This document shows positions 485 through 17,709 of a stretch of 24,000 nt of DNA, one piece after another. The notes under the pieces are model-generated. The model did no database searches. It had not been told where the DNA came from and was given only the letters and a program-made list of their open reading frames with translations. The position numbers were made by a program, and so were the translations under genes. Numbering within the stretch: position 1 is the stretch's first letter; every line of letters begins with the position of its first letter. The DNA is taken from positions 38,612 through 62,611 of the forward strand of contig CAVRFE010000002.1 in NCBI GenBank assembly GCA_963720325.1. The letters run 5' to 3'. The DNA is from an uncultured Actinomycetota bacterium (GTDB lineage Bacteria; Actinomycetota; Actinomycetes; Propionibacteriales; Actinopolymorphaceae).

Positions 485-669
485 CGCGCTGCGCCCGATC
501 ACTGGGACGCTCTCAACCCGTCGACCGGGCCTTGCCGTACAGGTGCAGATCGGTACGATCGTCGCAGCACGGATGATCATGGCGCGGAGCAATACAGCAC
601 CTGCGGTCTGGGGGAACCAAACGGGGCAGACCGTGTCAGACTGGTTGCACGAGCGTCTTGGAGGCCTCA

Positions 670-2355
670 ATGACCGTCGGCGACTCCCTTCCCCCCGGTA
701 GCGCTTTCGCGCCCAGCTCTCTTTCCTCCGACTCGCTTCCGCCTGGTGTCGACCCCACGAGGCCGAGTGCCGGCCGCATCTACGACCTGTTCCTCGGTGG
801 TACCGACTACCTCCAGGTCGACCTCAAGGTCGCGGAGGTCCTCCGGCAGTTGGCACCGGAGGCCGAGGACGGTGTCTGGGCAAACCGCGGCTTCCTCCAG
901 CGGTCCGCGCGCTGGATGGCACTCGAAGGCGTCGATCAGTTCATCGATATCGGCGCCGGACTACCGACCCGCAACAACACGCACGAGGCAGTTCAGTCGG
1001 TCAATCCCGACGCGCGGACGGTGTACGTCGACAACGACACGATGATCCTGGCGCACGCGCGCTCGCTGCTCGAGGGCACACCGAACACCGCCTACATCAG
1101 TGGCGACTTCCGGGACCCCGAGAGCGTTCTCAACGACCCCGAGCTCCGGGCAATGATCGACTTCGACAGGCCGGTCGGCCTGATGCTCACCATGATCCTT
1201 CATTTCGTCTCCAACGATGTCAACCCGGTCAGCCTCGTGCACCGGTATCTCGACGCTCTGGCGCCCGGTAGCTACCTCGCGCTGTCCCATGGCACCTCGT
1301 CACGCACCAACCCGGACGTGATCGAACGAGCCAAGGCGCTCTACGCCAATGCCACCGAGCAGCTCCACATCCGGACCGAGGAGGAGATCAACCAGTTCTT
1401 CGACGGCCTCGACTTCGTGCCGCCCTACGACGGTGCACCGGCGAAGCTCACCTACGTCGGTCTGTGGGGAGCGGAAGACCCCGAGGCGGCCGACAGTGAC
1501 GGGTCACGGTGGGTCATGTGCGGCGTCGGCCGTAAGCCGAGGCCGGTCCCGAAAGGAGTCGACACCTCCCGACCGGCGGCGGCCCGGGTGTACGACTACA
1601 TCCTCGGCGGAGAGATCAACTACGCGGTCGATCGGCAGGCTGTCGAGCACACCAAGCAAGGCGTTCCCGAGCTTCCCGACATCGCGTGGTCCAACCGCGG
1701 GTTCCATCAACGGGCCGCGAAGTGGCTCGCGGAAAGCGCGGGCATGCGGCAGTTCCTCGACATCGGTTCCGGGCTGCCGACGCAGAACAACACCCACGAA
1801 GTCGTCCAGCGGGTCGCGCCCGACGCCCACGTCGTCTACGTCGACATCGACCCGATGGTCAAGGCCCTTGCCGCCGACCTGCTGCGCGGATCGCCGCACA
1901 CCGCCGTCATCACCGGCGACGTACGCGATCCCGACGGCATCCTGCTCAACGCAGACGTACGGTCTCTGATCGACTTCAGCCAGCCGGTCGCGCTGTTCAT
2001 GACCGGACTCCTCATGTTGGTGCCGGACGAGTCCGATCCAACGGGACTGCTTCGGCGCTACATCGACGCGCTGGCACCGGGCAGTTATCTCGCCCTCACC
2101 CACCCCACCGCCGACAGGCAGGCGCCGGACAAGGCGGAGCGGATGAGCGGCGTGTTGGGCCGGGGCAGTTCGTTCACGCTGCGACCGAAGGAGTTCGTCG
2201 AGGGGCTGTTCGCCGGTCTGGAGTTCGTGCCGCCCTACCCCGACGCCGAAGCAGGGCTCACCTGGGCGGGACTGTGGGGAGCGGAAGACCCCGAGGCGGC
2301 TGACAGCGACGGTTCCCGGTGGATGTACTGCGGGGTCGCGCGCAAGCCCGCGTAG
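670..2355 (+). CDS. Fused tandem pair of SAM-dependent methyltransferase modules (PF04672 / DUF574-like 'S-adenosyl methyltransferase'), two complete copies in one ORF
   Basis: GGAGG at 660-664 lies 5 nt before ATG 670; the ORF track starts at TTG 658. Both halves carry R[IV]YDxxLGG, [AS]NRGF, F[IL]DIG[AS]GLPTxNNTHE, VYVDxD, DALAPGSYLAL[ST]H and GLWGAEDPEAADSDGSRW. The halves are joined by RKPRPVPKG with no stop codon. Confidence 0.85.
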   Translation: MTVGDSLPPGSAFAPSSLSSDSLPPGVDPTRPSAGRIYDLFLGGTDYLQVDLKVAEVLRQLAPEAEDGVWANRGFLQRSARWMALEGVDQFIDIGAGLPTRNNTHEAVQSVNPDARTVYVDNDTMILAHARSLLEGTPNTAYISGDFRDPESVLNDPELRAMIDFDRPVGLMLTMILHFVSNDVNPVSLVHRYLDALAPGSYLALSHGTSSRTNPDVIERAKALYANATEQLHIRTEEEINQFFDGLDFVPPYDGAPAKLTYVGLWGAEDPEAADSDGSRWVMCGVGRKPRPVPKGVDTSRPAAARVYDYILGGEINYAVDRQAVEHTKQGVPELPDIAWSNRGFHQRAAKWLAESAGMRQFLDIGSGLPTQNNTHEVVQRVAPDAHVVYVDIDPMVKALAADLLRGSPHTAVITGDVRDPDGILLNADVRSLIDFSQPVALFMTGLLMLVPDESDPTGLLRRYIDALAPGSYLALTHPTADRQAPDKAERMSGVLGRGSSFTLRPKEFVEGLFAGLEFVPPYPDAEAGLTWAGLWGAEDPEAADSDGSRWMYCGVARKPA

Positions 2356-12413: not shown

Positions 12414-13460
12414 TCAGGGAGTGTTGCGACGCCAGATCATTGCGTAGTTGGTCGTGAAGATGCAGCCGCCGGCAATGGTGCACGACGACTTCACGGGGTA
12501 CGACTCGAAGGCCAGCGGCCGGTAGCCGGCCTGGTCGCCGTACTGCGCGCGATTCCACAGCAGCTCGTCGGCGTCCATGTCACGCACCTCGACGGTCGCG
12601 CGGCCACGCCGGTCGCTGAGCCAGACGCCGGAGTACTTGTTGTACGCGTCGTCGATCTGCGGCCAGGTGTTGTCGATCTTGTAGAGGGCGGCGTTCACAG
12701 CCACGATCCGGTGACTGTCCTTGAGCTCGTTGAACTTGTCCGCGAACGTGTCGGTCCGCAGCCCCCACCAGAGCTGCCAGCCGAGGTGGTCGATGTTCTT
12801 GACCCAGATCGTGGCGTAGCAGTGATTGCAGCCGGAGACGCTGTACTCCTCGACGTCGACGGGCATCCGGCCCTGGTCGCGCTGCGAGTTGGCGACACCC
12901 TGCATCTGCGCGGAGGTCTTGTCCTTGACCAGGACCGCGTCGGTGGTGCCCACGCCCTCCACCCAGATGGCGGCGTACTGCTTGCCGACACCGCTGACCT
13001 GGTACGCCTCGAAGTCGGCGATGCGCAGCCCGAACGCCTTGGCGAAGTTGTTCGACGCCTCGTACTCGTCGGGCGTCATGTCGTGCTGGACCATATAGCC
13101 GAGGCCAGTGGGCTTCTTCTGGAAGACCCCGCTGTACAGAGTGGCGTTCATGGTGAGGACCTCGAGGTCGAGGAGCATGTAGCCGTCGCCGGTCAGCCGG
13201 CTGTACTCGGCGTCGAAGCCCGCCTTGTCGCGCGGTGACACAAACCTCGTGTCCGTGTGGTTGGGATCAAAGATCGGCGTCGTCGGGCCGGGGTACGCCG
13301 ACGCCGACGGAGTTGCGATGGTCATCAGGCACGTCACTGCCATCGCCGCCGCCATGGTCATTGCCATCGTCAGCCGGCGCAGGCGGCCCAGCCGCGCACG
13401 GAGACGAGGCGGTGAGCCACCGCTGATGCGTTGGCTCTGCCTGCTCGAACTACCTGTCAT
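12414..13460 (-). CDS. Secreted tandem-repeat protein (five ~50-60 aa repeats each ending Y-[AS]-x-[IV]-[WF]); resembles the bacterial tandem repeat / polyglycine-hydrolase-like structural repeat
   Basis: The N-terminus is RLRARLGRLRRLTMAMTMAAAMAVTCLMTIATPSASA/YPG (signal peptide, possibly Tat-type RR). The repeat ends are LYSGVF, YAAIWV, YATIWV, YSGVWL and YAMIWR. The family assignment is from memory only. Confidence 0.7.
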   Translation of the reverse strand: MTGSSSRQSQRISGGSPPRLRARLGRLRRLTMAMTMAAAMAVTCLMTIATPSASAYPGPTTPIFDPNHTDTRFVSPRDKAGFDAEYSRLTGDGYMLLDLEVLTMNATLYSGVFQKKPTGLGYMVQHDMTPDEYEASNNFAKAFGLRIADFEAYQVSGVGKQYAAIWVEGVGTTDAVLVKDKTSAQMQGVANSQRDQGRMPVDVEEYSVSGCNHCYATIWVKNIDHLGWQLWWGLRTDTFADKFNELKDSHRIVAVNAALYKIDNTWPQIDDAYNKYSGVWLSDRRGRATVEVRDMDADELLWNRAQYGDQAGYRPLAFESYPVKSSCTIAGGCIFTTNYAMIWRRNTP

Positions 13461-13752: not shown

Positions 13753-14598
13753 ATGCCTACAGTGCCGGTCGATGCGCAAGATCCCGAGGAACGCCTTCGC
13801 GAGCTCGAGGCGATGCTGAACGCGATTACCGAATACCAGATCATCAAACTGGACGTGACCGGACACATCGCCAGCTGGAACCCCGGCGCGGAGGCCGTCC
13901 AGGGCTACACGGCCCACGAGGTCATCGGCCAGCCAGTGGCGATGTTCTACACCGACGAGGATCAGGCGGCCGGATTACCGCAGCGGGAGCTCCAGACCGC
14001 GCGCGACACGGGCCGGGTCGAGTTCGAGGGGTGGCGGGTCAGACGGGGCGGTGAGCGGTTCTGGTCCAGCGTGATCCTGGCACCGATCCGGGACGAGAGT
14101 GGCGAGGTGTCCGGGTTTGTGAAGGTCACCCGCGACGAGACCGAACGCCGCGAGCAGGAGGTACGCCTACAGCGCCAGCGGGACGAGATCCTGGAACTGT
14201 CCACGCCCGTCATCCAGGTGTGGGACAAGGTGCTCGTACTCCCGATCATCGGCACCCTCGACTCCCAGCGCGCGGCCCGACTCACCGAGAGCCTGCTGGA
14301 AAAGATCGCCGAGTCCCAGGGAGAAATCATCATTCTCGAGGTCAGTGGCGTTCCCACCATTGATACTCAAGTAGGTCAGCACCTCCTCAAAACCGTACAA
14401 GCGGCTGCACTGATGGGGACGGTGAGTATCTTGAGCGGGGTTCGGGCGGAGGTTGCCCAGTCGATGGTCAACCTCGGCGTCGATCTGGGTCAGCTGCGTT
14501 CGCGCAACACGTTGCGTGACGCACTACAGCTCGCATTGCAACTGCTCCGCGAGCGACCCGCGGTGGCATCACCGTCACTGCCCGGGGAGGGCCTGTGA
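13753..14598 (+). CDS. rsbR: RsbR-like stressosome sensor: N-terminal PAS domain + C-terminal STAS domain
   Basis: GGGAGGAGG lies 7 nt upstream of the ATG. The PAS region reads ITEYQIIKLDVTGHIASWNPGAEAVQGYTAHEVIGQPV... The STAS region reads ELSTPVIQVWDKVLVLPIIGTLDSQRA...LEVSGVPTIDTQVGQHL, with Ser/Thr at positions equivalent to the RsbR phospho-sites. Confidence 0.85.
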   Translation: MPTVPVDAQDPEERLRELEAMLNAITEYQIIKLDVTGHIASWNPGAEAVQGYTAHEVIGQPVAMFYTDEDQAAGLPQRELQTARDTGRVEFEGWRVRRGGERFWSSVILAPIRDESGEVSGFVKVTRDETERREQEVRLQRQRDEILELSTPVIQVWDKVLVLPIIGTLDSQRAARLTESLLEKIAESQGEIIILEVSGVPTIDTQVGQHLLKTVQAAALMGTVSILSGVRAEVAQSMVNLGVDLGQLRSRNTLRDALQLALQLLRERPAVASPSLPGEGL

Positions 14599-14966
14599 GC
14601 GAAGCCGCCGCGCCGATCCTTCGCATCGAAGACACCCTGCTGGTGAGCTTGCAAGGCGACCTTGACGACACCACGGTGATCCGGATCGAGGACCAGCTGA
14701 CCAAGGAGGTCGTGCGCACCCACGTCACCGGGATTCTGATCGACGTCAGCGGGCTGTCCGTGATCGACTCGTTCAGCGCCCGCGTGATCGCCCGGTTCAT
14801 CGGGATGGTCCGGCTGCTCGGATCGCAGGCGGCAGTGGTCGGCATCCAACCGGCGGTAGCCATCACCTTGGTCGAACTTGGCGTGCCCATGGGACACCTC
14901 GACACCGCGCTCAACGCCGAGCAGGGCGTGGCGCTGCTTCGGCGGCTGCGTCGTGAAGACACTTGA
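14595..14966 (+). CDS. rsbS: RsbS-like STAS-domain antagonist (stressosome scaffold)
   Basis: GTGA overlaps the upstream stop at 14595-14598. The protein is 123 aa: PILRIEDTLLVSLQGDLDD...ILIDVSGLSVIDSFSARVI. The IDSF serine is conserved. Confidence 0.85.
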   Translation: MSEAAAPILRIEDTLLVSLQGDLDDTTVIRIEDQLTKEVVRTHVTGILIDVSGLSVIDSFSARVIARFIGMVRLLGSQAAVVGIQPAVAITLVELGVPMGHLDTALNAEQGVALLRRLRREDT

Positions 14967-14976
14967 GCCAACCGAC

Positions 14977-15381
14977 ATGGATCAGGTCGAGCTGACGATC
15001 TCAACCGAGGCCGACCTGATAAGGGTGCGGCAGGTTCTGCGCGCCAACTCTCAGAGCGCCGGGCTCGGCCTGGTCGACGAGACAAAGCTCATCACCGCCG
15101 GAAGCGAGCTCGCCCGCAACATCCTGACGCACTCTGCCGCCTCCCGCGGCGAGCTGGTGGTCGAGCGGGTGCAGGCCGCCGGCAAGGTCGGGGTCAGGGC
15201 GACATTCTCCGACGAGGGACCGGGCATCGCCGATCTGGACCAGGCACTGACGGACGGATTCAGTACGACCGGGAGCCAGGGCATCGGGCTTCCCGGTGCC
15301 AGGCGTCTCGTGGACGAGATGCGGATCATGACGGCGGGCGGCTCCAGTACGACAGTGGTGATCGTCAAGTGGCGGCGATGA
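14977..15381 (+). CDS. rsbT: RsbT-like serine kinase / switch protein (HATPase_c family)
   Basis: The protein is 134 aa from ATG 14977; an alternative GTG 14953 overlaps rsbS. N-box is SELARNIL, G1 is DEGPGI and G2 is GIGLPG. Length and motif order match B. subtilis RsbT as I recall it. Confidence 0.85.
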   Translation: MDQVELTISTEADLIRVRQVLRANSQSAGLGLVDETKLITAGSELARNILTHSAASRGELVVERVQAAGKVGVRATFSDEGPGIADLDQALTDGFSTTGSQGIGLPGARRLVDEMRIMTAGGSSTTVVIVKWRR

Positions 15382-16373
15382 CGGAGGCGACACATAGGCT
15401 GCTCGCGATCCGGGCCGAGGAAGACGTCGGGGCACTTCGCCGGGCCGTCGGGCAGCTGGCCGAGGACATACCGACGATCCGCCGTGGCGACGCCGACCTT
15501 GCTGCGACCGAGTTGGCGACCAACCTCATCCGGCACGCGACCGCCGGCGGCTACGTCCTGTACCGCAGGGACGGCAACGCGGTCGAGCTGATCTCGGTCG
15601 ACCGCGGACCCGGCCTGAGTTCGGGGGACCTGCCGCGGCCGAAGGCCACACCCCCGGGCCTGGGCGCCGGTCTTGCCACCATCGAGCGGCTCGCTTCGGT
15701 CTTCGACTGCTACTCGACGAAGGACGGGACGGTGATCCTCGCGCGGCTTGGGACACCGCGTCCGGACCTGCCGGGGTCGTGGCGGAGCGGATCCCTGAAC
15801 GTGCCGCGGGGTGGCGATGGCGAGTCCGGTGACGGATCCGCGCTCGCCGCCGACCACCGTGCGGCGGCCGTCCTCGTCGACGGGTTGGGCCATGGGCCGG
15901 CGGCTGCGGCGGCCTCGCGCGCGGCGCTCTCGGAGTTCGACGAACGGGCCGCATCGGATCCCGTCGACTTCGTGCGGCGGGCCCACGCGGCGATGCGGAC
16001 GACCCGAGGCGGCGTGCTCGGCCTGTGCGTCATCGACCAGGCTCGGAACGAGGTGTCCTACGTCGGGGTCGGCAACATCGTCGGCAAGGTGATCATGCGC
16101 GACAGCCGCTACCGCCTGCTCGGGCGGGACGGGGTCCTCGGTACCGAGCTCGCGCCACCTCATCCCGACGCGGGCACCGGCCGCTGGGGCCCAGGAGCCA
16201 CGCTCGTGCTCACCTCCGACGGGGTCAACTCGATGTGGGACCCGGCGACGTACCCCGGACTCCTGGACCACGATCCCGTCGTGTTCGCCGCCGTCCTCCA
16301 CCGTGATCACGGTGAGCCCGCCGACGACTCGTCCGTGCTGGTCGTCCGCGACACGAGGGGTGCCGTCGGGTGA
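15378..16373 (+). CDS. Fusion of an RsbT/RsbW-like HATPase_c module to a PP2C (SpoIIE/RsbX-like) phosphatase
   Basis: ATGA overlaps the rsbT-like stop at 15378-15381. The N-terminal half carries ATELATNLIRHA, DRGPGL and GLGAGLATIERL. The C-terminal half carries GESGDG..., VLVDGLGHGPAAAAAS, LTSDGV and DDSSVLVVRD. Confidence 0.8.
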   Translation: MTEATHRLLAIRAEEDVGALRRAVGQLAEDIPTIRRGDADLAATELATNLIRHATAGGYVLYRRDGNAVELISVDRGPGLSSGDLPRPKATPPGLGAGLATIERLASVFDCYSTKDGTVILARLGTPRPDLPGSWRSGSLNVPRGGDGESGDGSALAADHRAAAVLVDGLGHGPAAAAASRAALSEFDERAASDPVDFVRRAHAAMRTTRGGVLGLCVIDQARNEVSYVGVGNIVGKVIMRDSRYRLLGRDGVLGTELAPPHPDAGTGRWGPGATLVLTSDGVNSMWDPATYPGLLDHDPVVFAAVLHRDHGEPADDSSVLVVRDTRGAVG

Positions 16374-17638
16374 GCGGGCGGCGACGACCACAACGACAGG
16401 ACGGGTCAGCCGACAAACCCGCCCCGGCCAGACCGGCACCCGCGGACAAGACCGCGGGTGCGGACAAGACCGCGAGTGCGGACAAGACGGCGGCGGCGGA
16501 AAGACGCGCGGCGGCTGCCTCGACACGGCAGCGCAAGGACCAGGAACTCCAGGCCAAGGACCGCCAGATCGCCGAACTCCATCGCGAGTTCGAGGAGACC
16601 AACCGTGGCCTGATCGCGCTGCACGCCGAACTCGACGACGCCCGACAGGCCGAGGCCCGCCTCGCGGCGATCGTCCAGTCGTCGAACGACGCGATGTTCT
16701 CGATGACGCCGCAGAAGGTCATCCAGACCTGGAACGCCGGAGCGGAAGGCCTGCTCGGGTACTCCGCGGCTCAGATCGTCGGCCGCCCGATCGAGGTTCT
16801 GGTCGCGGGTGAGTCGCCGCCACAGTTCGACTCGGTACTGGAACGGATCCGTGCCGGTGAGCGCGCCGAGTCCTACGACACCCGCTGGCGGCGTGGCGAC
16901 GGATCGCTGACCGACGTGGTGGTCCGGGTGGCGGCGATGTGGGACGCGTCGGGTGCGCTGCTCGGCTTCTCCGTGGTGGCCAGCGACATCACCAATCGCC
17001 TACGTACGCAGGCGGAGTTGGCCGCGGCTCGCGCCGACTTCGAGGTGTCGGAGGACCGGGACCGCATTGCGCGGGACCTGCAGGACATGGTGATCCAGCG
17101 CGTCTTCCGGGCCGGTATGGCACTGGAGGGCATCGCCAGCCTGCTCAACCGTCCGGAGGCGGTCCTGCAGGTGGAGGCGGTGGTCGGCGAGTTGGACCTG
17201 ACGATCCAGGAGCTTCGGACGACCATCTTCGCCTTGCACGGCCGTCCGCAGAAGTCGGCGAGCCTGCGGGCGCAGCTGCTGGAGGCCGCGAGTGCGGCAC
17301 ATCCCGGTCTGGGCTTCGCTCCCGACGTGAGGTTCGACGGTCCGGTAGACGCCGCGGTCCCTGACGACGTCGCCCTTCGCGTGGTCGCCGTGGTCGAGGA
17401 AGCCCTGTCCAACATCGCCCGACACTCGCACGCGTCCACGACAGAGGTGTCGGTTCGCGCGGCTGAAGAGTTGGTGCTGACGGTCATGGACAACGGCGAG
17501 GACATGGACCGGGAAGCGATCGCCAGTGGACTGCGGAGCATCCGGGACCACGTGCATGCCCTCGGCGGGGCGTTCGAGGTGGTGAGCCAGTCCGACGGCG
17601 GTACCCGGATCGAGGCCCGGCTGCCCCTGTCGAGGTGA
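16370..17638 (+). CDS. PAS + HisKA_3-like + HATPase_c protein (DevS/NarX-type kinase core) lacking the phospho-acceptor His; probable pseudo-histidine kinase
   Basis: GTGA overlaps the upstream stop at 16370-16373. The N-terminus holds ADK-rich repeats and a coiled coil (ELQAKDRQIAELHREFEETNRGLIALHAELDD). The PAS region reads IVQSSNDAMFSM...WNAGAEGLLGYSAAQIVGRPI. The H-box reads DRIARDLQDMVIQRVF (Q where H is expected). N-box is EEALSNIARHS and G1 is DNGED. Confidence 0.8.
   Translation: MSGRRRPQRQDGSADKPAPARPAPADKTAGADKTASADKTAAAERRAAAASTRQRKDQELQAKDRQIAELHREFEETNRGLIALHAELDDARQAEARLAAIVQSSNDAMFSMTPQKVIQTWNAGAEGLLGYSAAQIVGRPIEVLVAGESPPQFDSVLERIRAGERAESYDTRWRRGDGSLTDVVVRVAAMWDASGALLGFSVVASDITNRLRTQAELAAARADFEVSEDRDRIARDLQDMVIQRVFRAGMALEGIASLLNRPEAVLQVEAVVGELDLTIQELRTTIFALHGRPQKSASLRAQLLEAASAAHPGLGFAPDVRFDGPVDAAVPDDVALRVVAVVEEALSNIARHSHASTTEVSVRAAEELVLTVMDNGEDMDREAIASGLRSIRDHVHALGGAFEVVSQSDGGTRIEARLPLSR
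16442..16495 (+). repeat. In-frame 18-nt tandem repeat x3 (GCGGACAAGACCGCGGGT and variants) encoding ADKTAG/ADKTAS/ADKTAA
   Basis: Units at 16442-16459, 16460-16477 and 16478-16495. A more diverged ADKPAP unit precedes them. Confidence 0.85.
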
Positions 17639-17648
17639 CATGTGTGGA

Positions 17649-17676
17649 GGTATCCCGGCAGCTTCGCCGGGATACC
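17649..17676. terminator. Hairpin 1 between convergent operons
   Basis: GGTATCCCGGC (17649-59), loop AGCTTC, then GCCGGGATACC (17666-76). The 11-bp stem is perfect and begins 11 nt after the TGA at 17638. Confidence 0.55.
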
Positions 17677-17681
17677 CCCGA

Positions 17682-17709
17682 CAGGTCGGCCGGGGACGTG
17701 GCCGACCTG
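17682..17709. terminator. Hairpin 2 between convergent operons
   Basis: CAGGTCGGCC (17682-91), loop GGGGACGT, then GGCCGACCTG (17700-09). The 10-bp stem is perfect and ends 13 nt before the monooxygenase stop at 17722. Confidence 0.55.

Follow-up and report, generated by a model that had tools for sequence, protein, structure and literature searches.

In histidine kinases of the HisKA_3 type, a DxxxQ motif is required for phosphatase activity (PMC3510030) and the phospho-acceptor His is dispensable for it (PMC12632262); the H188V variant of DesK has been used as a module in the phosphatase state, and the Q193A substitution lowers phosphatase activity (10.1101/2021.11.12.468217). HisKA_3 domains that lack the His are rare in general, making up 0.3% (56 of 16,025) of those in a published survey (PMC12632262). 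Pseudo-histidine kinases are an established category, and a Streptomyces histidine pseudokinase was reported in 2026. Two-component proteins that receive the signal of an RsbRST module are known from Vibrio (PMC9237108). A literature search found no paper on an actinomycete version of such an RsbRST–two-component operon. The present analysis concerns a 24,000-nt stretch of DNA (the window) from an uncultured bacterium, with the 69% G+C of a high-GC actinomycete, and, within it, the open reading frame (ORF) at 16370-17638 of the forward strand, the last gene of an operon resembling those that encode stressosomes. Its 422-residue product, referred to below as the window protein, is a PAS–HisKA_3–HATPase_c sensor in which the phospho-acceptor His is missing; the gene begins in a GTGA overlap with the upstream stop codon. 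The reading that we favor, with a confidence somewhat better than even, is that of a kinase-dead sensor maintained by selection, whose His-independent activity would be the terminal output of the stressosome-like operon.

The acceptor histidine and the ATP site

Three domains of the window protein are recognized by Pfam: PAS (residues 97-207, 57 bits, 1.8e-15), HisKA_3 (PF07730; residues 230-290, 30.6 bits, above the curated threshold of 24), and HATPase_c (PF02518; residues 335-421, 41.2 bits against a cutoff of 26.4, 2.6e-10). The PAS sensor domain is assigned to residues 96-211 (16655-17002, on the forward strand, as are all operon coordinates below), the helical hairpin of the dimerization and histidine phosphotransfer (DHp) domain to residues 212-295 (17003-17254), with model helices at 208-258 and 262-290, and the catalytic and ATP-binding (CA) domain to residues 296-422 (17255-17635), where the fold is kept and the catalytic motifs are partly lost. 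An AlphaFold model based on a 30-sequence alignment has a mean predicted local distance difference test score (pLDDT) of 87 and is confident in all domains; residues 1-35 are disordered (pLDDT about 50 over residues 1-40) and are followed by a long helix (36-104), the PAS fold, the DHp hairpin, and an alpha/beta CA domain with pLDDT mostly above 90. Foldseek matches of the model include PAS-histidine kinases, DesK, and the DosS CA domain (8sbm, template modeling score 0.79), and the closest comparison of the CA sequence with solved structures is with the DevS CA domain (3zxo, 6.9e-14). An initial interpretation made from the DNA letters alone, the sequence-only reading, had called the kinase core DevS-like, a description that suits this core, with the similarity confined to the CA domain, and does not extend to the sensor portion, which is PAS and not GAF; no GAF domain was matched by Pfam, and PAS is the sole sensor domain detected.

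The H-box of the window protein reads DRIARDLQDMVIQ / DRIARDLQDMVIQRVF. In a phmmer comparison with solved structures, the DHp domain aligned without gaps to DesK around this box (EERQRIARDLHDTLGQ against EDRDRIARDLQDMVIQ, or RIARDLQD against RIARDLHD), and therefore Q238 lies on DesK His188, D239 on D189, and Q243 on Q193. The sequence-only reading had placed Gln, encoded by CAG at 17081-17083 (codon 238), at the phospho-acceptor position, and the family alignment agrees. This alignment was made with MAFFT from the best 120 database homologues, which are 43-60% identical to the window protein and about 385 residues long, and 36 further homologues were retrieved by a search seeded with P0002, the nearest relative outside the sibling strains. 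Column 238 contains His in 114, Gln in 4, and Arg in 2 of the 120 and His in all 36 of the others (150 of 156 overall). A different His as acceptor is ruled out by the DesK and family alignments, in which no alternative conserved His occurs near the DHp acceptor position. An error of sequencing or assembly at 17081-17083 is likewise excluded, since the codon is CAG, and not CAC or CAT, in three other assemblies: L099, an independent assembly of another run that is identical across the gene and has the ORF intact, and the sibling strains L002 and L098, which come from other metagenome assemblies, are 99.1 and 98.1% identical to the window, respectively, and share both CAG and the DNGED motif described below. 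The exact 422-residue protein is also present in public data (P0157).

The sequence that follows the missing His is an intact DxxxQ transmitter-phosphatase motif of HisKA_3 kinases, D239-M-V-I-Q243 (17084-17098), aligned with Asp189 and Gln193 of DesK. One residue of DHp helix 2 has been lost along with the His: codon 267 (17168-17170) specifies Gln where the family has Arg, a residue present in 112 of the 114 His-bearing members and in only two of the six His-less lineages, being lost in the other four (Fisher p = 3e-5).

In the CA domain, the G1 box at 17489-17503 is D-N-G-E-D (D374-D378) instead of D-N-G-R-G, as the sequence-only reading had noted in calling it degenerate; the second Gly, replaced by Asp in the window protein (G378D), is Gly in all 113 His-bearing homologues that cover the site. 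The G2 region, A-S-G-L-R-S-I-R-D-H (17522-17551), had also been regarded as degenerate on account of ASGL, and here the interpretation has to be changed. The family motif is xSGLxNxRxR, with S386 in 102 of 120 sequences and position 385 variable, and DevS itself reads GSGL; S386-G387-L388 is thus normal, and the true deviations are N390S and R394H, together with A395V and W416A. These four, with A353S and R343E, are the near-invariant CA positions changed in the window protein. Arg394 is present in 112 of 112 His-bearing members, Asn390 in 107, and Trp416 in 109; codon 416 (17615-17617) specifies Ala in the window and Cys in the sibling L098. Gly378, Arg394, and Asp374 are invariant in His-bearing members and altered only in His-less ones. 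Where at least 90% of the family share a residue, the window protein deviates in 7 of 30 positions in the CA domain, 0 of 21 in the PAS domain, and 2 of 28 in the DHp domain; the comparison of 7/30 in CA with 3/57 elsewhere gives a Fisher p of 0.03, and His-bearing members average 0.85 CA deviations. A fold that is kept with its catalytic positions released, as seen here, is the usual signature of a pseudo-enzyme.

The ATP site is nevertheless damaged, not erased, because Asn348, Asp374, Gly376, Gly387, and Gly411-Thr412 are retained, the first of these within the N-box EEALSNIARHS (17396-17428), whose preservation had been recognized correctly from the start. The same retained residues would fit a continuing part in a phosphorelay, in which the partly kept ATP site phosphorylates a paralogous partner kinase on its His within a heterodimer, or in which some other residue serves as the acceptor. 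HisKA_3 kinases autophosphorylate across or within dimers, and one family member, P0088, combines Gln at the His position with a canonical CA domain (0 of 30 deviations). For the window protein, however, we consider a continuing phosphorelay role highly improbable: G378D puts an acidic side chain into the glycine-rich ATP lid, R394H, N390S, and W416A affect residues that are invariant in active members, the sister protein P0002 lacks the Mg-binding Asn and the adenine-binding Asp, the window contains no paralogue, and the alignments offer no alternative His near the acceptor position. We infer that autophosphorylation and phosphate donation have been lost in the window protein.

Selection, decay, and His-less relatives

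A sensor that has lost its acceptor His could be a relic in decay, its kinase function gone, its catalytic domain eroding, and no selected function left. The concentration of conserved-site losses in the CA domain would fit such a history, as would frameshifts in the sensor gene of the sibling assemblies, namely +1 at 17306 in L002, +1 at 16426 in L098, and −1 at 17518 in both. The deletion at 17518 is one G missing inside GCGATCGC and would shift the frame of the last 40 codons of the sensor; its occurrence in both assemblies has two possible sources, a genuine truncation of the CA domain or a long-read error that recurs systematically at this GATC/CGATCG site, which may be methylated. In L002, however, indels are also found in the unrelated RsbT-like, WYL-regulator, and hydrolase genes, a pattern typical of assembly error, and the substitutions that separate the window from L098 are mostly at third codon positions of the frame of the window, even downstream of the indels. 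Most of the sibling indels are read as assembly errors for these two reasons. A 331-residue protein from contig L002 (P0001) was considered as a natural truncated form and is, on the same grounds, probably an assembly artifact.

The ORF is intact in both the window and the independent assembly L099, and comparison of the window with L098 over the whole gene shows 23 synonymous and 11 nonsynonymous substitutions, a ratio that rejects neutrality (binomial probability 2e-7). By region, synonymous and nonsynonymous changes number 3 and 0 in the PAS domain, 3 and 2 in the DHp domain, 9 and 3 in CA residues 296-383, and 5 and 4 in the last 39 codons. The sensor gene as a whole, including most of the CA domain, is under purifying selection; the ratio in the last 39 codons, with codon 416 still changing, is the part of this comparison that speaks for decay. 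The density of substitutions between the window and L098 climbs from 5' to 3', at synonymous sites as well, from 1.3% in the N terminus and PAS domain to 2.0% in the DHp and 5.5% in the CA domain, a rise suggesting that the 3' part has recombined with an allele of greater divergence.

P0002, encoded on a 5.8-kb metagenome contig, is 61% identical to the window protein and also has Gln at position 238. The two have H238Q, R267Q, and R394H in common and are sisters in a neighbor-joining tree with a bootstrap value of 96, or 86 when the tree is built without the CA domain and without columns 238 and 267. The DHp is the best conserved domain between them, at 77% identity, as compared with 60-71% between either of the two and His-bearing members. 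The CA domain of P0002 is still more degenerate than that of the window protein, with N348H, D374E, G376S, an insertion that lengthens the lid, and deviations at 10 of 30 conserved positions, and this too could be taken as a sign of decay. For this pair only the nonsynonymous divergence (dN) was used, because synonymous sites are distorted by extreme G+C at third codon positions, and the ratio of dN to synonymous divergence was dropped. The dN of the CA domain is 0.41, as compared with 0.35-0.43 for pairs of His-bearing, active-looking kinases; amino acid divergence in this domain is therefore no higher than among active kinases, and the CA fold is still constrained. The 4-nt overlap of the sensor gene with the operon is conserved in P0002, where the gene upstream likewise encodes a PP2C phosphatase. 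No further relatives with Gln were found in the protein search seeded with P0002 or in a metagenome scan for Q-type H-boxes, which yielded only a different family of membrane-bound proteins; among the matches listed in a scan of genome contigs, few were full-length orthologues. The sequence-only reading had asked whether the altered motifs are conserved in a clade or peculiar to one strain, and the answer is intermediate: Gln is common to the window protein and its nearest lineage, which form a tiny clade, and the rest of the family keeps His.

The other His-less members differ among themselves. P0088 (Gln) is encoded inside the operon and has the Q243G change. P0104 (Gln) and P0092 (Arg) are sisters that stand alone outside the operon, the gene for P0092 adjoining an IS110 transposase; P0104 has acquired G378E independently of the window protein and has Gly in place of Gln243. 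P0083, with Arg at position 238, is also a stand-alone gene. The isolated location of these last three, and the neighboring transposase in one case, would be in keeping with decay. As an account of the window protein, decay is regarded as improbable in view of its intact ORF, the selection on it, its constrained CA domain, and the overlap with the operon that it shares with P0002. The alignment and tree indicate that there is a minimum of four independent losses of the His among about 150 orthologues; set against the frequency in the published survey of HisKA_3 domains, this gives a rough Fisher p of 7e-6, for two data sets that are not strictly comparable.

Two further groups of sequences were noted in the course of these comparisons. 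P0057, P0068, and P0072 bear the His and have Gly for Gln in the DxxxQ motif (DLHDRVIGRVF), which is the opposite separation, with the kinase site kept and the phosphatase residue lost. Several metagenome loci (L090 1371-2753, L093, L094 8462-9736 on the reverse strand, L095, and L097) encode polytopic membrane proteins about 410 residues long that belong to a family of their own; these have a HisKA_3 match of 31.5 bits and an H-box that is always DRIASDLQDRVIQRIF, with Gln for His, and their C-terminal region is without an N-box, G-boxes, or a HATPase_c match. They look like a conserved His-less HisKA_3 family.

The operon and the output of the sensor

The window sensor is encoded by the last of five translationally coupled genes, and the other four proteins have intact motifs. 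The first gene (13753-14598) encodes an RsbR-like protein with PAS and STAS domains, identified by Pfam in the identical gene of L002 and L098 and corresponding to the YtvA-like PAS-STAS architecture of NCBIfam. It is followed by an RsbS-like single-STAS gene (14595-14966), whose start overlaps the upstream stop by 4 nt, and by a gene (14977-15381) for an RsbT-like small HATPase_c/HATPase_c_2 protein of the Ser/Thr-kinase type (134 residues), supported by Pfam and by gene calls in L098 and L099, in which the N-box and G-boxes are conserved. The fourth gene (15378-16373), joined to the third by an ATGA overlap, encodes a protein in which Pfam recognizes an RsbW/RsbT-like HATPase_c_2 domain fused to a PP2C (SpoIIE) phosphatase domain, whose metal-binding Asp motifs are conserved in comparison with four orthologues. 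The types of protein that make up a stressosome module are thus encoded here, with an RsbR-type PAS and STAS protein and an RsbS-type STAS protein adjoining an RsbT-type kinase; the PP2C phosphatase, joined as it is to a HATPase_c_2 domain, may or may not correspond to the feedback phosphatase RsbX. Among the proteins of the operon, none scores above the cutoff of an NCBIfam model.

The same five-gene order, with a His-bearing sensor, is found in Streptomyces, Actinopolymorpha, Mycolicibacterium, and Planomonospora. Identities with the orthologues of Actinopolymorpha sp. B11F2 (L088) are 89% for RsbR, 97% for RsbS, 75% for RsbT, 54% for the PP2C fusion, and 56% for the sensor, from which it appears that the stressosome core is far more constrained than the output half of the operon. 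A recent horizontal transfer of the 5' half from Actinopolymorpha was considered and rejected: the DNA there is only about 76% identical despite 89-97% protein identity, and the high protein identity therefore reflects constraint.

Within the long helix that precedes the PAS domain (residues 36-104) lies a family-conserved motif, E-T-N-R-G-L-I-A-L-H-A-E-L (residues 75-88; 16592-16633), whose near-invariant columns are Glu73, Asn78, Gly80-Ala83, Glu87, and Leu88. It corresponds to no Pfam model and is confined to the PAS–HisKA_3 sensor family among the loci examined; P0092 and P0104, which are stand-alone copies without the His, have it in degenerate form or not at all. The RsbT-like protein may dock at this motif. 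The gene of the window protein also contains an 18-nt tandem repeat, present in 3.9 copies at 16442-16511 (GCGGACAAGACCGCGGGT, detected by TRF) and encoding ADKTAG-like repeats, within an N-terminal extension of about 37 residues that is disordered in the model and missing from all of the homologues (about 385 residues).

These observations can be combined in a mechanism in which the terminal sensor of the stressosome-like operon no longer autophosphorylates or donates phosphate, and its intact DHp surface, with D239 and Q243, would dock an unlinked response regulator of the NarL/LuxR type. The sensor would then act as a phosphatase only, or would sequester the regulator, and its activity would be set by the PAS domain and by the RsbT-like module acting through the conserved N-terminal helix. 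A role in dephosphorylation or in regulator binding is suggested by the intact state of both the DxxxQ motif and the DHp surface and by the fact that DesK in which the His has been replaced (H188V) still dephosphorylates its regulator; to phosphatase activity specifically as the output we would assign a probability of about one third. Several points weigh against a kinase-dead sensor with a His-independent output. No response regulator that could be the partner is present in the window or adjoining any orthologue. If phosphatase-only function were a common fate, HisKA_3 domains without the His would be expected to be less rare than they are (PMC12632262). Gln243 has been lost, to Gly, in both P0088 and P0104, and phosphatase activity therefore cannot be the general explanation of His loss in the family. 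The Gln-bearing clade comprises two lineages only, and long-branch attraction could inflate their pairing. Nucleotide binding by the CA domain may persist, given the residues that are kept there, and the −1 deletion at 17518 in both sibling assemblies, if real, truncates this domain.

The genetic context allows a different role, in which the window protein is a non-catalytic scaffold, or is phosphorylated on Ser/Thr by the RsbT-like kinase or by the kinase-like part of the PP2C fusion, and the stressosome signal is relayed by protein contacts, not through a response regulator. The linkage and translational coupling of the sensor gene to genes for two RsbT/RsbW-type kinase domains would favor this, and the N-terminal helix motif, lost in copies outside the operon, could be the docking site it calls for. 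For stressosome loci of the Vibrio type, it has been proposed that a sensor kinase downstream is phosphorylated in an RsbT-dependent manner, although an interaction between RsbT and the kinase was undetected in the same study (PMC9237108), and DivL provides a precedent for a repurposed His-less kinase (PMC4211667). On the other hand, the STAS domain, which is the known fold of RsbT substrates, is absent from the Pfam matches of the window protein, and a scaffold or substrate role gives no reason why conservation should be best in the DHp surface and the DxxxQ motif. We therefore regard this role as unlikely; a phosphatase-only or regulator-binding role appears at least as likely, given the retained DxxxQ motif, and no sequence evidence favors the scaffold or substrate.

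It is possible, if doubtful, that a His-independent output is a property of the whole family of PAS–HisKA_3 sensors of this operon, each being switched by RsbT and dedicated to dephosphorylating or sequestering a NarL-type regulator encoded elsewhere. Such an output would explain the separate losses of the His (at least four) in this set of orthologues, of which two, both to Gln, are inside an intact operon. On this family-wide reading, the window would show how, in nature, a bifunctional kinase can become a stressosome output with phosphatase function only. Stressosome-type output outside the Bacillus sigma-B paradigm is poorly understood, and the actinomycete operon is apparently uncharacterized. 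A natural, selected allele in which both the His and the ATP lid are altered, so that it is probably kinase-dead, and in which the phosphatase motif is kept is a ready-made separation-of-function variant, with which one could ask whether phosphotransfer, dephosphorylation, or protein contacts are the means of signaling in this family. The recurrent loss of the His in one uncharacterized stressosome-output family, the co-loss of Arg267, and the convergent change of the G1 Gly to an acidic residue are what set the locus above the routine; the co-lost residues, Arg267 with His238 and Gly378 replaced by an acidic residue in two lineages, point to sites whose function is tied to that of the phospho-His in HisKA_3 kinases.

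Downstream of the sensor gene, two GC-rich hairpins (inverted repeats I1 and I2, 17646-17709) lie between it and a convergent flavin mono-oxygenase gene and are likely to mark the end of the operon; scans for consensus promoters and terminators found nothing, and no U-tract terminator was scored. On the other side of the operon, between it and the WYL regulator, is a gene (12414-13460, reverse strand) for a secreted BTRD1-repeat, polyglycine-hydrolase-like protein, which is present in the window and in L002 and absent at that place in L098. Farther away, an ORF of 565 codons (658-2355, forward strand) contains two tandem stretches of the SAM-dependent methyltransferase family Methyltransf_19, and a single-domain relative lies near the orthologous operon of Actinopolymorpha (L088 2360-3205).

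Comparison with known systems

The window protein resembles the HisKA_3 kinases of the DesK/NarX type in its DHp domain, in an H-box that matches residue for residue (RIARDL-H/Q-D...Q), in the DxxxQ motif, and in a HATPase_c fold with a short lid. The behavior proposed for it is that of laboratory variants of the DesK H188V type, which are kinase-dead and phosphatase-competent. It differs in that its loss of the His is natural and is accompanied by changes in G1 and in the G2 region, in being cytoplasmic, with a PAS sensor domain and an N-terminal coiled coil, and in being encoded within a stressosome-like operon without an adjacent NarL-type regulator. DevS/DosS and DosT of Mycobacterium tuberculosis provide the best matches to its CA sequence among solved structures and share the short ATP lid and the DNGxG and xSGL motifs; these proteins, however, sense through haem in tandem GAF domains, have the His and DNGRG, and act with DevR, whereas the window protein has PAS, Gln, and DNGED.

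Other pseudo-histidine kinases (Collins & Childers 2021), such as DivL of Caulobacter and PsmA of Streptomyces venezuelae, are similar in keeping the fold within a signaling pathway after loss of the phospho-acceptor, of ATP-site residues, or of both. DivL, a protein of the HisKA type, has Tyr in place of the His and reads the state of DivK, and PsmA is a hybrid kinase-like polarisome protein; unlike the window protein, neither is of the HisKA_3 type or linked to an RsbRST module. The nearest parallel to the operon is the RsbRST locus of the Vibrio vulnificus/brasiliensis type (PMC9237108; Pané-Farré 2005), where RsbR, RsbS, RsbT, and a PP2C phosphatase are likewise followed by a PAS sensor kinase, not a sigma-factor cascade. 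In the actinomycete operon, in contrast, RsbR is of the PAS and not the globin type, the PP2C phosphatase is fused to a kinase-like domain, and the kinase is of the HisKA_3 type, has no receiver or GGDEF partner nearby, and in the window has no His.

With respect to classification, the window protein has the DHp domain, the DxxxQ motif, and the HATPase_c fold with N-box of a HisKA_3 kinase, and lacks the acceptor His and the DxGxG of G1, while its G2 region agrees with the family motif in part; it is therefore best filed as a pseudo-histidine kinase of HisKA_3 ancestry and not as a kinase of the DevS/NarX type. Catalytic requirements are lacking (H238Q, G378D, N390S, R394H), and the gene is retained by selection, with the frameshifts of L002 and L098 as a caveat. 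The proposal of a pseudo-histidine kinase in the sequence-only reading is upheld, as far as sequence comparison can carry it, by the absent acceptor, the changes at the G1 Gly and at invariant CA residues, and a gene that is intact, coupled to its operon, and under purifying selection. The window protein is thus a known kind of protein, a pseudo-histidine kinase, in a new context, and not a new kind.

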